From NCBI RefSeq assembly GCF_055900595.2, contig NZ_CM148325.1: a stretch of DNA of 64,000 bases; one strand, given 5' to 3'. A program made the translations under genes and the position numbers. Below are positions 9,076-64,000 of this stretch, piece after piece. The first letter of the stretch is position 1, and each line of letters opens with the position of its first letter. Under the pieces are notes generated by a model. The model had not been told where the DNA came from, searched no databases, and worked only from the letters and a program-made list of their open reading frames with translations.

Positions 9076-10103
9076 TTATTGAGATCGCTTAACAGAACGG
9101 CGATGCTTTGACCTCCCGCTGTTTGTTCAAGCGCAATTTTGACAATAATTGTTAACGGCACGGAAAGCAGCATACCCACCGGTCCTAACAACCATCCCCA
9201 AAAAATCAACGACAAAAATACCACCAATGTGGAAAGCCCCAGCCCACGTCCCATGATGCGCGGCTCCAGAATATTGCCGAAGACCAGATTAATTAGCAGA
9301 TATCCCGCCAGCACCAGCAACGCTTCGTAGAAGCCATTAAACACCAGTACCTGAGCGATAGGGGGGATTGCCGCGAGAACTGAACCAATATTCGGGATGT
9401 AATTAAGCGCAAAGGCCAGCAATCCCCAGACAAAAGCGAAGCGAACATCGAGTGCGGCGAGCATCGCCCAGGCGACCAGGCCGGTGATGATGCTGATGGC
9501 TGTTTTCAGCACCAGATAATGAGACACACTGTCAATCGCGCGCTGAATCGCCGCCATCCCTTCAACCGGACGCGCCATCATTTGCTGAAATTTTCCGGGC
9601 AATTGTGGCACTTCGAGCAGCATAAACAGCACCGTCAGCAGCAATAAAAATATTGATGACATGGCATTAGATAACTGCGTCAATAAGTTGGTGAGCAACG
9701 TCATCGCCGCGTTCGGGTCAATGTAATGAGCCAGTTGGTCAACTGAGACATCAATCCCTACGCGTTGCAACAACGGTTCAATAGCTTGAAGTGGTGTCAT
9801 AATGGAGTTGCGATATTGCGGCAACGTCCTCGTTAATTCATTGAGCGCGGACCCCAGATAAGCTAGCAGCAACACCATTGCCATCACGATGATGGTCATC
9901 AAAATCGACACCGCCAGTACACGCGGCACTCGCCAGCGGACCATGTGTTGCACCAGCGGGTTAAGAATAACAGCAATAAATAATGCGAGAATAAACGGCA
10001 CGATGATCTCGGCGGCAAAACGGATACCGCAGAGAATAATGACCAGCATTCCCAACATAATGACGATTTTTAGGCCATTGAGCGTGATGATCGGCTTTGC
10101 CAT
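9069..10103 (-). CDS. tqsA: AI-2 exporter TqsA (AI-2E family transporter)
   Basis: 344-aa membrane [40 protein letters not shown]... Confidence 0.9.
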
Positions 10104-56384: not shown

Positions 56385-57892
56385 TGGCAATTCTTGATGA
56401 TGTGATTGGCGTTTTTTCACCAGGATGGAAAGCGGCAAGGCTGCGTTCCCGGGCGGTGATCCAGGCTTATGAGGCCGTAAAAACGACGCGGACACACAAA
56501 GCCCGGCGGGAAAACCGAACTGCCGACCAGTTAAGCCTCTACGGGGCCGTGTCGTTACGTGAGCAGGCCCGTTACCTTGATAACAACCACGATCTGGTCA
56601 TTGGTGTATTTGACAAGCTGGAAGAACGGGTGGTGGGGAAAAACGGGATTATTGTCGAGCCACATCCGGTATTACGCAATGGGGCCATTGCCCGTGATCT
56701 GGCAGCGGAGATACGCACCCGATGGAGTGAATGGTCTGTCAGTCCGGAAGTTACCGGGCAGTTTACCCGTCCGATGCTGGAACGTCTGATGCTGCGTACC
56801 TGGCTGCGCGATGGTGAGGTGTTTGCCCAGATGGTTTCCGGGCGCATAAACAGCCTGACGCCTTCTGCCGGTGTTCATTTCTGGCTGGAGGCACTCGAGC
56901 CAGACTTTATTCCCATGACCAGTGATGAGAGCAACAGGCTGAATCAGGGCGTGTTTGTTGATGACTGGGGGCGTCCCGAAAAATATCTGGTGTATAAAAG
57001 TCGTCCTGTATCCGGACGGCAGATGGAAACCAAAGAAGTGGATGCAGAGCGAATGCTGCATCTTAAATTTGTTCGCCGTCTGCACCAGATGCGCGGGACG
57101 TCTTTATTGTCCGGTGTGCTGATCCGCCTCAGTGCCCTGAAAGAATATGAAGATTCTGAGCTGACTGCAGCAAGGATCGCTGCTGCTCTGGGGATGTACA
57201 TCCGCAAAGGCGACGGACAGAGCTATGAAACGGATGGTAATGACAGCAAGGAGAATGAACGCGAGCTTACCATTCAGCCAGGCATTATTTACGACGATCT
57301 GAAACCCGGCGAAGAAATCGGAATGGTGAAGTCGGATCGCCCCAATCCTAACCTTGAAACTTTTCGTAATGGTCAGTTGCGTGCCGTGGCGGCGGGCAGT
57401 CGTCTGAGTTTTTCCAGTACAGCGCGCAACTATAACGGCACTTACAGCGCCCAGCGTCAGGAGCTGGTTGAATCCACTGATGGCTACCTGATCCTGCAGG
57501 ACTGGTTTATTGGTGCCGTCACCCGCCCGATGTATCGTGCCTGGCTGAAACAGGCTGTGGCATCCGGTGTTATCAGGCTACCCCGCGATCTTGACCGTTC
57601 TTCACTGTATACCGCGGTGTATTCCGGACCGGTGATGCCGTGGATTGACCCTGTTAAGGAGGCTGAGGCCTGGAAAATTCAGATTCGTGGTGGAGCGGCG
57701 ACAGAATCAGACTGGGTACGTGCAGGTGGTCGTAATCCGGATGATGTCAAACGTCGGCGCAAGGCAGAAATTGATGAAAACCGCAAGCTGGATCTGGTAT
57801 TTGATACCGATCCGGCCAGTGATAAAGGAGGCAGCAGTGCCGCAACGAAACGACAGGAGCCGCAGCACACCGACGACCAGTCCGAAGAATAA
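56384..57892 (+). CDS. Portal protein (lambda gpB-like)
   Basis: 502-aa ORF MAILDDVIGVFSPGWKAARLRSRAVIQAYEAVKT...; start overlaps gpW-like stop. Confidence 0.85.
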   Translation: MAILDDVIGVFSPGWKAARLRSRAVIQAYEAVKTTRTHKARRENRTADQLSLYGAVSLREQARYLDNNHDLVIGVFDKLEERVVGKNGIIVEPHPVLRNGAIARDLAAEIRTRWSEWSVSPEVTGQFTRPMLERLMLRTWLRDGEVFAQMVSGRINSLTPSAGVHFWLEALEPDFIPMTSDESNRLNQGVFVDDWGRPEKYLVYKSRPVSGRQMETKEVDAERMLHLKFVRRLHQMRGTSLLSGVLIRLSALKEYEDSELTAARIAAALGMYIRKGDGQSYETDGNDSKENERELTIQPGIIYDDLKPGEEIGMVKSDRPNPNLETFRNGQLRAVAAGSRLSFSSTARNYNGTYSAQRQELVESTDGYLILQDWFIGAVTRPMYRAWLKQAVASGVIRLPRDLDRSSLYTAVYSGPVMPWIDPVKEAEAWKIQIRGGAATESDWVRAGGRNPDDVKRRRKAEIDENRKLDLVFDTDPASDKGGSSAATKRQEPQHTDDQSEE

Positions 57893-57905
57893 TTCCTGGT
57901 TCAGG

Positions 57906-59864
57906 ATGCAGGCTGGTCACCAGAGTGACGCGGATATTTATATTTATGACGAGATTGGTTTCTGGGGTGTTACAGCGAAGCAGTTTATCAGTGATCTGAA
58001 TGCACTGGGCGATATCACCCACATTAATCTCCATATCAATTCACCGGGTGGCGATGTCTTTGAAGGCATCGCCATTTTTAATGCGCTGAAAACACATGGT
58101 GCGTCCATTACCGTTTATGTCGACGGTGTGGCGGCGTCAATGGCGTCGGTCATTGCGATGGTGGGAAACCCGGTCATTATGCCGGAAAACACCTTCATGA
58201 TGATTCATAAACCATTTGGCTTTACGGGCGGTGATGCGGAGGACATGCGCACCTATGCCGACCTGCTCGATAAGGTTGAGGCGGTTCTGTTACCCGCTTA
58301 TGCACAGAAAACCGGGAAAACCACCGATGAAATTGCTGCCATGCTGGCGGATGAGACCTGGATGTCCGGTGCCGAATGTCTGGCACATGGATTTGCTGAT
58401 CAGGTGACGCCAGCCGTTAAGGCAATGGCATGTATTCAGTCAAAACGTACAGAGGAATTTAAAAAGATGCCGGAATCCATTCGAAACATGATTACTCCGC
58501 CACGCAACAGTGCTCCACGCGTACAGGATGATGAACCTGCAGCCTCCCGGACGCCAGTGCAGGCAGCAGCACCCGTGGTGGATGAAAACAGTATCCGTGC
58601 GCAGGTACTGGCAGAGCAAAAAGCGCGTGTAAACGGTATTAATGATCTGTTTGCCATGTTTGGCGGGCGTTATCAGACGCTGCAGGCTCAGTGTCTTGCC
58701 GATCCTGAGTGTTCGCTGGAGCAGGCCCGCGAAAAGCTGTTGAACGAGATGGGGCGCGAGTCCACGCCATCCAATAAAAATACACCGGCTCATATTTATG
58801 CTGGTAACGGTAATTTTGTGGGGGACGGGATCCGCCAGGCGCTGATGGCGCGTGCCGGATTTGAAAAAACCGAACGTGATAATGTCTACAACGGGATGAC
58901 CCTGCGTGAATATGCCCGTATGTCACTGACTGAACGGGGTATTGGGGTTTCCGGTTATAACCCGATGCAGATGGTCGGTGCGGCGTTCACCCACAGTACG
59001 TCTGACTTCGGTAATATTCTGCTGGATGTTGCGAACAAAGCCATTCTGCAGGGCTGGGAAGATGCTCCTGAAACCTATGAACAATGGACGCGGAAAGGTC
59101 AGTTGTCTGATTTTAAAATTGCCCATCGTGTGGGTATGGGGGGCTTCAGTGCTCTGCGTCAGGTGCGTGAAGGGGCGGAATATAAATACGTCACCACCGG
59201 AGATAAACAGGCCACTATTGCACTGGCGACCTATGGCGAGCTGTTCAGTATCACCCGTCAGGCCATTATCAATGATGATCTGAATATGCTGACCGATGTC
59301 CCGATGAAACTGGGCCGTGCGGCGAAATCCACTATTGCCGATCTGGTTTATGCCATTCTGACGTCTAACCCGAAAATCTCCACAGATAATGTAAGTCTGT
59401 TCGATAAAGCGAAACATGCAAACGTACTGGAGAGCGCTGCAATGGACGTGGCATCGCTGGATAAAGCCCGCCAGTTGATGCGCGTTCAGAAAGAGGGGGA
59501 GCGTCATCTGAATATTCGTCCTGCGTTCGTACTGGTACCGACGGCGATGGAGTCTGTTGCTAACCAGGTCATTCGCTCCTCAAGTGTCAAGGGGGCTGAC
59601 ATTAACGCCGGTATTATTAACCCGGTGAAAGATTTTGCGACCGTTATTGCAGAGCCTCGTCTTGATGATAACAGCCAGACCACCTTCTACCTGGCTGCGT
59701 CAAAAGGCTCCGATACGATTGAAGTGGCTTATCTCAACGGTGTGGATACGCCATATATTGATCAGATGGAGGGCTTCAGTGTGGATGGCGTGACAACGAA
59801 AGTGCGTATTGACGCCGGTGTCGCGCCAGTTGATCACCGCGGTCTGGTGAAATGTACGGCGTAA
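57906..59864 (+). CDS. Fused prohead protease (ClpP/S49-like) - scaffold - major capsid protein
   Basis: 652-aa ORF; N-terminal ClpP-like segment (...IYIYDEIGFWG...INSPGGDVFEGIAIFNALKTH...MMIHKPF...) and C-terminal capsid-like domain. Confidence 0.8.
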   Translation: MQAGHQSDADIYIYDEIGFWGVTAKQFISDLNALGDITHINLHINSPGGDVFEGIAIFNALKTHGASITVYVDGVAASMASVIAMVGNPVIMPENTFMMIHKPFGFTGGDAEDMRTYADLLDKVEAVLLPAYAQKTGKTTDEIAAMLADETWMSGAECLAHGFADQVTPAVKAMACIQSKRTEEFKKMPESIRNMITPPRNSAPRVQDDEPAASRTPVQAAAPVVDENSIRAQVLAEQKARVNGINDLFAMFGGRYQTLQAQCLADPECSLEQAREKLLNEMGRESTPSNKNTPAHIYAGNGNFVGDGIRQALMARAGFEKTERDNVYNGMTLREYARMSLTERGIGVSGYNPMQMVGAAFTHSTSDFGNILLDVANKAILQGWEDAPETYEQWTRKGQLSDFKIAHRVGMGGFSALRQVREGAEYKYVTTGDKQATIALATYGELFSITRQAIINDDLNMLTDVPMKLGRAAKSTIADLVYAILTSNPKISTDNVSLFDKAKHANVLESAAMDVASLDKARQLMRVQKEGERHLNIRPAFVLVPTAMESVANQVIRSSSVKGADINAGIINPVKDFATVIAEPRLDDNSQTTFYLAASKGSDTIEVAYLNGVDTPYIDQMEGFSVDGVTTKVRIDAGVAPVDHRGLVKCTA

Positions 59865-61552: not shown

Positions 61553-62296
61553 ATGACCACACCAAATCCACTGGCAAAGACGAAAGGTGCGGGGACGACG
61601 TTCTGGATGTATACCGGCAACGGCGATGCGTTTGCGAACCCTTTGTCGGACACTGACTGGCTGCGTCTTGCGATGGTGAAGGATCTGCAACCTGGCGAAA
61701 TGACCGCTGATGCAGAAGATGACACTTATCTCGATGATGAAGATGCAGACTGGAAAACGACAACCCAGGGGCAGAAATCCGTTGGTGATACTTCGGCGAC
61801 GCTGGCCTGGCGTCCGGGTGACAGCGGGCAGAAAAAACTGGTTCAGTTGTTCGACTCCGGTGAAGTCTGCGCGTTTCGTATCAAATATCCCAACGGCACT
61901 GTTGATGTTTTCCGTGGCTGGCTGAGCTCACTGGGTAAAACCATTGCCTCAAAAGACGTGATGACCCGCACTGTGAAAATCAGCGGTGTGGGGCGTCCGT
62001 ATCTGGCAGAGGAAGGCACTGAAACCGTGAGCGTTACCGGGCTGACAGTATCACCGGCGTCTGCCAGTGTAAAAGTGGGAGCAACCACCACGCTGACCTT
62101 TACAGTAAAACCTGACGGAGCCAGTGACAAAGCGATCAGTGTGCATTCGTCAGATCCACAGACTGCCACGGTTACCCTGAACGGACTTGTGGCCACGGTA
62201 AAAGGCGTGAAGCAGGGCAGTGTCAGCATTGTGGGCATGACCGCTGACGGGAATTTTGTGGCTGTGACTGCGGTGACTGTCAGCGCAGCAGGTTAA
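61553..62296 (+). CDS. Major tail protein (lambda gpV-like) with C-terminal Ig-like domain
   Basis: ORF MTTPNPLAKTKGAGTTFWMYTGNGDAFANPLSDTDWLRLAMVKDL...YLDDEDADW...NGTVDVFRGW...; RBS AAGGAGG. Confidence 0.85.
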   Translation: MTTPNPLAKTKGAGTTFWMYTGNGDAFANPLSDTDWLRLAMVKDLQPGEMTADAEDDTYLDDEDADWKTTTQGQKSVGDTSATLAWRPGDSGQKKLVQLFDSGEVCAFRIKYPNGTVDVFRGWLSSLGKTIASKDVMTRTVKISGVGRPYLAEEGTETVSVTGLTVSPASASVKVGATTTLTFTVKPDGASDKAISVHSSDPQTATVTLNGLVATVKGVKQGSVSIVGMTADGNFVAVTAVTVSAAG

Positions 62297-62315
62297 CAGG
62301 ACGATACTCATCATT

Positions 62316-62341
62316 TGCCCCGGTTATGCGGGGCTTTTTTG
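62316..62341 (+). terminator. Rho-independent terminator after major tail gene
   Basis: GCCCCG-gttatg-CGGGGC stem followed by TTTTTT. Confidence 0.6.
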
Positions 62342-62353
62342 CAGGTGGAGAAC

Positions 62354-62743
62354 ATGATGTTTCTGAAACAGGACACGTTTAATTATGAAAAACAGTCCGT
62401 GGTGCTCAGTGAGCTGTCCGGGCTGCAGAGAATTGAATATCTGACGTTTGTTCAGCAGCGAACGGCAAAGTTTGATGCCGTGGAGGGAGAACTGCCGGAG
62501 GCTGAACGACAGATTGCTTTTCTGCGGATGGGGATGGATATCAATGCCTGGCTGGTTTCCCGCTCACTGTGGAATGCGGATCAGTCTAAGGATGTAGAGA
62601 CGCTTTGCGCATCCGTTATTACAACATGGTCGTATGATGCCCTGGGTGCGGGGGCGGAGATGGTTCTGTCGCTGAGCGGTATGGGGGCCATTGATAATGC
62701 CGTGGATGATGAGCATGAGGCGCTGACGCCGGAAAAGTCCTGA
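62354..62743 (+). CDS. Tail assembly chaperone (lambda gpG-like)
   Basis: ORF MMFLKQDTFNYEKQSVVLSELSGLQRIEYLTFVQQ... aligns with lambda gpG (MFLKTESFEHNGVTVTLSELSALQRIEHL...) from memory; RBS GGAG. Confidence 0.8.
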   Translation: MMFLKQDTFNYEKQSVVLSELSGLQRIEYLTFVQQRTAKFDAVEGELPEAERQIAFLRMGMDINAWLVSRSLWNADQSKDVETLCASVITTWSYDALGAGAEMVLSLSGMGAIDNAVDDEHEALTPEKS

Positions 62744-63081
62744 CGCGGGAAATGCAGTTTGTCATGCGGCTTGCCCGGGAGTTCCGGCGGGCAGACTGGC
62801 GGCGGATGCTGTCGGAAATGTCGGCCACTGAGCTTGGTGAGTGGGGCGATTATTTCCGGATGCAGAGCTTCAGTGATGTGTGGATGGATGCGCAGTTTGC
62901 CTCGCTGAAGGCATTGATCGTGAGAATGGTGTCCGGCAGCAGTGATGCTGCGGTGGCTGATTTCAGCCTTTTACCGGAAGAGAACGGGATACCGGAGCGA
63001 ACGGACGAAGAACTGATGCATCTTGGGGAAGGTATTTCCGGAGGTGTGCGTTATGGACCAGATAGCCAACCTGGTCATTGA
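62719..63081 (+). CDS. Tail assembly chaperone T segment (expected to be expressed as G-T fusion by -1 frameshift)
   Basis: -1 frame relative to G is open from 62719 (after TGA at 62716-62718) to 63081 and overlaps the last 8 codons of G; candidate slip site GGAAAAG at 62731-62737. Confidence 0.6.
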   Translation, partial: GADAGKVLTREMQFVMRLAREFRRADWRRMLSEMSATELGEWGDYFRMQSFSDVWMDAQFASLKALIVRMVSGSSDAAVADFSLLPEENGIPERTDEELMHLGEGISGGVRYGPDSQPGH

Positions 63082-64000
63082 TTTGGGGATTGATGCGGCA
63101 GAGTTTAAAAATGAAATTCCCCGTATCAAAAACCTTCTGAATGGTGCAGCCAGCGATGCAGAACGGTCTTCTGCCCGTATGCAGCGTTTTATGGAGCGTC
63201 AGACTCAGGCCGCCCGGCAGACAACGCAGGCAGCTTCTTCGGCTGCAACAGCCGCATCCGTCCATGCGCAGACGGTGGAGAAGAACGCACAGGCTCATGA
63301 ACGCATGGCCCGCGAGGTGGAGAAAACCCGCCAGCGCATGGAGGCACTGAGCCAGAAAATGCGCGAGGAACAGGCGCAGGCCATCGCTCTGGCGGAGGCT
63401 CAGGATAAAGCGGCTGCTGCGTTTTATCGTCAGATTGACAGTGTGAAACAGGCCAGTGCGGGGCTGCAGGAATTACAGCGTATTCAGCAGCAGATCCGAC
63501 AGGCCAGAAACAGTGGCGGGATTGGTCAGCAGGATTATCTGGCGCTGATTTCTGAGGTTACGGCGAAAACCCGTGTTCTTACGCAGGCTGAGGCAGAGGC
63601 TACCCGACAGAAAGTGGCGTTTATCCGTCAGCTTAAAGAGCAGGCAACCCGCCAGAATCTTTCTTCTTCTGAGTTGCTTCGTGCCAGGGCTGCCCAGCTG
63701 GGGGTAAGCAGTGCTGCAGAAGTGTATATCCGCAAAATGGAGCGGGCAGGAAAAGCCACGCATTCGCTGGGTCTGAAAAGTGCAGCGGCCCGCCAGGAGA
63801 TAGGCGTTCTGATAGGTGAACTGGCCCGCGGCAATTTAGGGGCGCTGAGGGGATCCGGGATAACGCTGGCTAACCGTGCCGGATGGATAGACACACTGAT
63901 GTCACCGAAAGGCATGATGCTGGGCGGGGTTATTGGCGGTATTACCGCGGCCGTCTATGGTCTGGGTAAAGCCTGGTATGACGGTCAGAAGGAGGGGGAA
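63053..64000 (+). CDS. Tail tape measure protein (lambda gpH-like), 5' portion; continues beyond window
   Basis: Open frame from ATG 63053 (RBS GGAGG) to window end: MDQIANLVIDLGIDAAEFKNEIPRIKNLLNGAASDAERSSARMQRFMERQTQAARQ...; Ala/Gln-rich coiled-coil character. Confidence 0.8.
   Translation, partial: MDQIANLVIDLGIDAAEFKNEIPRIKNLLNGAASDAERSSARMQRFMERQTQAARQTTQAASSAATAASVHAQTVEKNAQAHERMAREVEKTRQRMEALSQKMREEQAQAIALAEAQDKAAAAFYRQIDSVKQASAGLQELQRIQQQIRQARNSGGIGQQDYLALISEVTAKTRVLTQAEAEATRQKVAFIRQLKEQATRQNLSSSELLRARAAQLGVSSAAEVYIRKMERAGKATHSLGLKSAAARQEIGVLIGELARGNLGALRGSGITLANRAGWIDTLMSPKGMMLGGVIGGITAAVYGLGKAWYDGQKEGE

Follow-up and report, generated by a model that had tools for sequence, protein, structure and literature searches.

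The gene G of the lambdoid prophage that lies at the end of the window (the whole stretch of 64,000 nucleotides analyzed) very probably undergoes a programmed -1 frameshift at the heptamer G GAA AAG, which would yield a G-T fusion protein of the lambda type. The observations behind this prediction are the anatomy of the sequence, its homology with known tail assembly genes, and the conservation of both the site and the T frame, and from them we infer that the shift takes place. According to the proposed mechanism, a minority of the ribosomes translating G would slip back one base at the heptamer and continue into T, giving the G-T fusion, while the remaining ones would stop two codons later and release G alone. 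By analogy with lambda, G and the G part of the G-T fusion would coat the tape measure protein and the T part would recruit the tail-tube protein, and the shift would hold G-T at a low, constant proportion relative to G.

The last 6 kb of the window are the head-tail module of the prophage. The region 62300-63100 is 97.5-99.9% identical to the phages PhiR55_1, mEp460, cdtI, Tritos, and Ayreon and 100% identical to the chromosome of E. coli Ecol_316, and the same module is present in 1845 of 5426 complete E. coli genomes (about a third), O157:H7 EDL933 among them. The gene G matches the Pfam family PF06894 (E 5.9e-40) and the NCBIfam equivalog TIGR01674 (182 bits; cut-off 74), and it is annotated as gpG in RefSeq. 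RefSeq places its start at 62357, the mEp460 record uses the alternative ATG at 62354, and the N-terminal sequence MFLK is common to the whole family. The T ORF, which is found in the -1 frame and overlaps the 3' end of G, matches PF06223 (E 5.1e-15) and the NCBIfam equivalog TIGR01715 (136.8 bits; cut-off 77). The G/T pair is placed between the genes encoding the major tail tube and the tape measure proteins, as expected of a lambda-type pair, and the start of the tape measure gene overlaps the end of T. The coordinates of these features are collected in Table 1.

Table 1. Features of the G/T region, in positions of the window.
Feature	Coordinates	Strand	Remarks
Major tail tube gene, lambda V homologue with C-terminal Big_2, directly upstream of G	61553-62296	+	PF16461, E 5e-67; PF02368, E 2.1e-12
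Gene G, tail assembly chaperone, 128 aa	62357-62743	+	stop TGA at 62741-62743
SD-like GAGG, candidate 5' stimulator	62717-62720	+	10-nt spacer to the heptamer
G/T overlap	62719-62743	+	25 nt; seven sense codons plus the stop
Candidate shift site G GAA AAG	62731-62737	+	sole re-pairing heptamer in the overlap
T portion of the predicted fusion	62737-63081	+	-1 frame from GTC 62737 (VLTREMQF...) to TGA 63079-63081
ATG used as stand-alone T start in public records	62752-62754	+	mEp460, cdtI, RefSeq; 8 nt after the G stop
Tape measure gene, lambda H homologue	63053-64000, leaves the window	+	PF06791 (TMP_2), E 7.3e-8; annotations in relatives

The G frame ends with the codons GCG CTG ACG CCG GAA AAG TCC TGA. 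An earlier sequence-only reading had claimed that the -1 frame of T is open only from 62719, and in fact a TGA occupies 62716-62718, after which the frame runs open to its stop at 63079-63081. The same reading had named G GAA AAG as the only candidate slip site, and the listing of every in-phase heptamer of the overlap agrees, as none of the others re-pairs. The site is one base apart from the G GGA AAG of lambda, as had been noted. The tRNA-Lys in the A site can re-pair from AAG to AAA, which would be the driver of the shift. The tRNA-Glu in the P site can re-pair from GAA to GGA through a G:C, a central G.U, and an A:U pair, a probable aid to the shift that depends on the middle G-U pair already pointed out by that reading. 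The heptamer departs from the canonical X XXY YYZ rule, its positions 1-3 being G, G, and A, and it contains a tetranucleotide of the Z_ZZN type, the in-frame A_AAG at 62734-62737. The predicted fusion has 241 aa, 127 from G and 114 from T, and a calculated mass of about 27 kDa, with the junction ALTPEK/VLTREMQF that had been deduced correctly from the sequence.

Among the 19,397 in-frame codon positions of the long ORFs in the window, A_AAG occurs in frame at 0.28% and G_GAA_AAG at 0.036%; within an overlap of eight codons, the corresponding chances are about 2% and about 0.3%. The conservation of the heptamer among relatives is a stronger argument than these rates. A total of 143 G-T loci, made up of 49 plus 80 IMG/VR loci and of annotated phages, gave 53 distinct junction sequences. 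In an alignment of the junctions of 17 phages, the G GAA AAG of the window falls in the same column as the G GGA AAG of lambda and the A AAA AAG of Stx2d_112808, and the fusion peptides are colinear in all of them (e.g., SAGK/VFDGELSF in lambda, TAEK/ALASELKF in N15, and TPEK/VLTREMQF in the window). The sequence GGAAAAG is invariant in 44 distinct junctions, in which the identity of G to that of the window goes down to 31%. In these junctions, Glu is always encoded by GAA and Lys always by AAG, and the codon preceding GAA always ends in G (CCG in 38, GCG in five, and CTG in one), whereas the adjacent Thr codon varies among ACC, ACG, ACA, and ACT. Such frozen synonymous sites, located where the T frame is not translated because it lies upstream of the shift, suggest that selection acts on the nucleotide motif itself. 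One relative has its stop directly after the heptamer. Another one, an IMG/VR locus (3300036792_000541; L130:1263-1392), carries C GCA AAG at the homologous position, where only the A AAG tetramer is kept and P-site re-pairing is impossible, and shows an SD-like AGGA 7 nt upstream.

The sequence-only reading had also called the heptamer non-canonical, with the implication of an unusual local deviation from lambda, and this part was not supported. G GAA AAG is found at the homologous position in N15, HK225, Phi06_2987, phi80, mEp213, and Fels-1, and the N15 record NC_001901 labels the same seven bases (10027-10033) as "slippery sequence for -1 translational frameshift". It is also the commonest heptamer among the sampled relatives, far above that of lambda, in a sampling that favoured relatives of the window. 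A text search of the literature for the heptamer in a phage context gave a paper on EF-G as the sole relevant match. Judged by these records and alignments, G GAA AAG is already known and is the heptamer normally seen in this branch, not a local deviation from lambda. The idea of a G-T tail-chaperone -1 shift with an unusual heptamer is retained, supported by strong comparative evidence, as far as the shift at G GAA AAG is concerned, but not as to the oddity of the site.

The public records offer a different reading, in which T is a gene of its own that starts at ATG 62752, perhaps reached by ribosomes that re-initiate once they have terminated at the G stop, and no frameshift is involved. Its closeness to the G stop is in line with this, and the mEp460, cdtI, and RefSeq records do annotate a T of 109 aa from that ATG. 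However, the position is occupied by Met in only five of 25 lineages, being Leu in 12, Ile in seven, and His in one, and the first in-frame ATG falls at codon 2, 3, 6, 10, 16, or 24 of the T frame depending on the relative (GTC 62737 being codon 1). Moreover, the conservation at the protein level begins upstream of the ATG, with the pattern [VA]-[LF]-x-x-E, whose Glu codon at 62749-62751 is invariant in the 25 lineages (GAA in 15 and GAG in ten), and the TIGR01715 profile starts at this same Glu, the fifth residue after the shift. No properly spaced Shine-Dalgarno sequence was seen on reading the sequence before ATG 62752, the sole purine run being GGGAA at 62747-62751, which abuts the ATG, its last G 2 nt upstream, and is therefore too close to serve as such a site. 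An independent T would also leave the frozen synonymous sites of the heptamer unexplained, and the T of lambda is known to act only when fused to G. The rarity of Met at this position, the shifting first ATG, and the conservation of the frame upstream of it together argue against independent initiation of T, which we consider very improbable. Re-initiation at this ATG, 8 nt after the G stop, may occur at a low level, and the codon is probably an internal Met of the G-T fusion. As in a lambda-type pair, T lacks a conserved start codon, and the constraint on its coding sequence sets in at the shift site; on the aligned sequences, selection on the protein encoded in the T frame is seen from the heptamer on. 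A change of frame at the RNA level, through slippage of RNA polymerase on the A run with the gain or loss of one base, would give an indistinguishable protein product, but it is hardly credible here, given that the run has only four A's, when the documented cases involve more than seven A's or more than eight T's, and that the conserved AAG (instead of AAA) and the conserved first G are features of tRNA re-pairing.

Even if the ribosome shifts at G GAA AAG, as we favour, slippage might involve a single tRNA on A AAG, with tRNA-Glu not re-pairing and the heptamer amounting to no more than a tetramer whose context is favourable. Among tetramers, A_AAG is the one most prone to shift in E. coli, a point that also speaks for the shift itself. 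On its own it supports shifting, as a recognised minimal -1 site, and IS1222 uses it productively at G_CGA_AAG, the efficiency depending on the P-site codon. The C GCA AAG of the L130 locus and the view that a second-position mismatch is unfavourable point in the same direction. On the other side, the first G of the heptamer, which is the fourfold-degenerate third position of its codon, is G in all 44 GGAAAAG junctions, unlike the third position of the neighbouring Thr codon, where all four bases are used. An invariant G is expected here only if the G:C pair formed after slippage matters, and since this base is relevant only to P-site re-pairing, its conservation favours tandem slippage with a central G.U. 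In addition, in dnaX variants the replacement of a P-site A.U by a G.U pair costs about 5 kJ/mol and substantial shifting remains, a penalty that is moderate rather than prohibitive, the first position being the only one measured. The authors of PRFect observed that motifs outside the XXXYYY type are common in annotated phage frameshifts, and that some of these would make sense if tRNA-Glu paired with GGA through G.U. We consider the single-tRNA mode unlikely, and the tandem mode would be the one used at the site.

Some biochemical data count against the shift. In a reconstituted system of purified E. coli components, G GAA AAG, described as the "less slippery" counterpart of G GGA AAG, yielded for the most part the 0-frame product, the stated reason being the second-position mismatch of tRNA-Glu. 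Likewise, A_AAG reaches 5.6% shifting with a strong pseudoknot and falls near background without a stimulator. In view of this in-vitro work, it is plausible that the site of the window is less efficient than that of lambda or mechanistically variant, as the sequence-only reading had proposed.

The lack of a significant or conserved downstream RNA structure also counts against the shift. The segments 62738-62840 (z -0.61) and 62738-62790 (z +1.09), 3' of the heptamer, did not show a significant stimulatory fold. A conserved 3' structure was not supported either, the consensus fold of 19 lineages having -2.3 kcal/mol and covariation at one of seven predicted pairs, and an Rfam scan of 62200-63200 returned matches at chance level only (E about 0.6). 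In lambda, the 103 nt that follow G GGA AAG (L052:1217-1319) fold with -41.4 kcal/mol (z -2.07), 6 of 200 shuffles being as good, and the equivalent segment of the window does not fold better than its shuffles.

A candidate stimulator was found on the 5' side, where the GAGG of Table 1 resembles a Shine-Dalgarno sequence. SD-like elements located 6-17 nt upstream have been shown to stimulate -1 shifting, and GAGG lies within this range. This element, missed by the sequence-only reading, could compensate for a weak heptamer and is a possible aid in the mechanism proposed above. Using the published definition (any one of GAGG, GGAG, AGGA, GGNGG, and AGGKG, 6-17 nt ahead of the motif's second base), SD-like elements were found in 15 of 19 lineages of the clade of the window and in none of six lambda/N15/phi80 lineages, lineages that are not fully independent in these counts. 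As a control, 91 in-phase positions of the same genes gave a mean of 3.1 of 19 lineages and a maximum of 10. A null model based on synonymous shuffling, which keeps the acidic peptide, gave 10.2 +/- 1.9 lineages (P=0.009). The energy of the duplex with the anti-SD peaks at about -5 kcal/mol for the 8-mers starting at -18 to -15, versus about -1.5 elsewhere, and the synonymous-shuffle test on this energy gave P=0.003, with an energy window picked after seeing the profile. The element reads GAGG in the window, AAGGAGGTG in L098, GGAGG in L105, and AGGA in Fels-1, and this difference between lineages argues against simple inheritance.

The hallmark of this clade is that G stops one codon after the heptamer, within CC GGAAAAG YCC followed by TGA or TAG. 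Across the clade (loci L128-L141), the stop equivalent to 62741-62743 is TGA, where the T frame reads CTG A.., or TAG, where the Leu of the T frame is CTA. In E. coli, CTA is a rare Leu codon, perhaps the rarest one. The adjacent 0-frame stop was considered as a stimulator in its own right and is left as an observation, no mechanism having been conceived because the stop enters the A site only after tRNA-Lys leaves the P site. As a tentative proposal, the signal of the mEp460/cdtI/Fels-1 clade may be a composite one unlike that of lambda, formed by an intrinsically weak heptamer, an SD-like stimulator whose position 10-13 nt upstream is conserved, and a 0-frame stop held one codon downstream. 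G GAA AAG is found on both sides of the deepest split of the family, and therefore the G GGA AAG of lambda may be a derived state.

The window shares with the lambda G/G-T system the homologous G and T families (TIGR01674 and TIGR01715), the gene order V-G-T-H, the column of the site, the AAG codon in the A site, and the architecture of the fusion. In lambda, the G:G-T ratio is about 30:1 and is crucial for tail assembly. The two systems differ in that the P-site codon of the window is GAA, not GGA, so that re-pairing needs the central G.U, in the SD-like element 10 nt upstream, which lambda lacks, in the distance to the G stop, which is one codon in the window and five in lambda, and in the sequence of G, with an identity of only about 30%. 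The phages N15 (genes 14/15), phi80, HK225, mEp213, and Fels-1 have the identical G GAA AAG at the homologous position. Fels-1 is a member of the clade of the window, whereas in N15, phi80, HK225, and mEp213 G stops five codons after the heptamer, and no SD-like element is found at 6-17 nt. The likeness to the G_CGA_AAG of IS1222 consists of the A-site tRNA-Lys moving from AAG to AAA and a P-site codon that departs from the XXY rule. Unlike the A_AAG tetramer sites, the site of the window has Watson-Crick pairing at two of the three P-site positions after slippage and a conserved first base, suggesting that this base contributes to the shift. E. coli dnaX and IS911 also have, some 10 nt 5' of a site ending in A AAG, an SD-like sequence that acts as a stimulator, a role that the GAGG of the window may share with them, and in dnaX the spacer is also 10 nt. 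They differ from the window in having a 3' stem-loop, and dnaX also in its fully canonical heptamer, while the window has no detectable 3' structure.

A textbook recoding site, in a known variant and in a ubiquitous prophage, has little biological consequence by itself. Nevertheless, in a very common prophage module, T is probably annotated wrongly when it is given as a stand-alone gene that starts at a non-conserved ATG. RefSeq (WP_001161009.1) and most of the GenBank phage records present it as a stand-alone protein of 109 aa with no ribosomal-slippage join, and thus the predicted fusion of 241 aa is absent from the protein databases for this module. On the other hand, the relatives provide a natural series at one homologous site, i.e., G GGA AAG, G GAA AAG, A AAA AAG, and C GCA AAG, with or without an upstream SD-like element. 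This series could be used to calibrate models of how well P-site mismatches are tolerated when bacterial ribosomes shift to the -1 frame.

Some other observations were made in the module. Four IMG/VR prophage contigs (L019, L026, L028, and L029) have single-base indels in G runs inside T that break the T frame. They were considered as natural variants of the G/T frame relationship and rejected, as the indels are well inside T in otherwise near-identical prophages; they are prophage decay or homopolymer sequencing errors. Upstream of the tail genes, a stop-to-stop ORF of 739 aa spans 57645-59864, and our guess, from its sequence and position, is that it encodes a prohead protease fused to the major capsid protein. 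Finally, a terminator-like hairpin (GCCCCG GTTATG CGGGGC, then TTTTTT) lies at 62317-62340, between the tail-tube gene and G, and the same hairpin is annotated in mEp460, Ayreon, N15, and HK225. It would reduce the transcription of G, T, and H relative to that of the tube protein.
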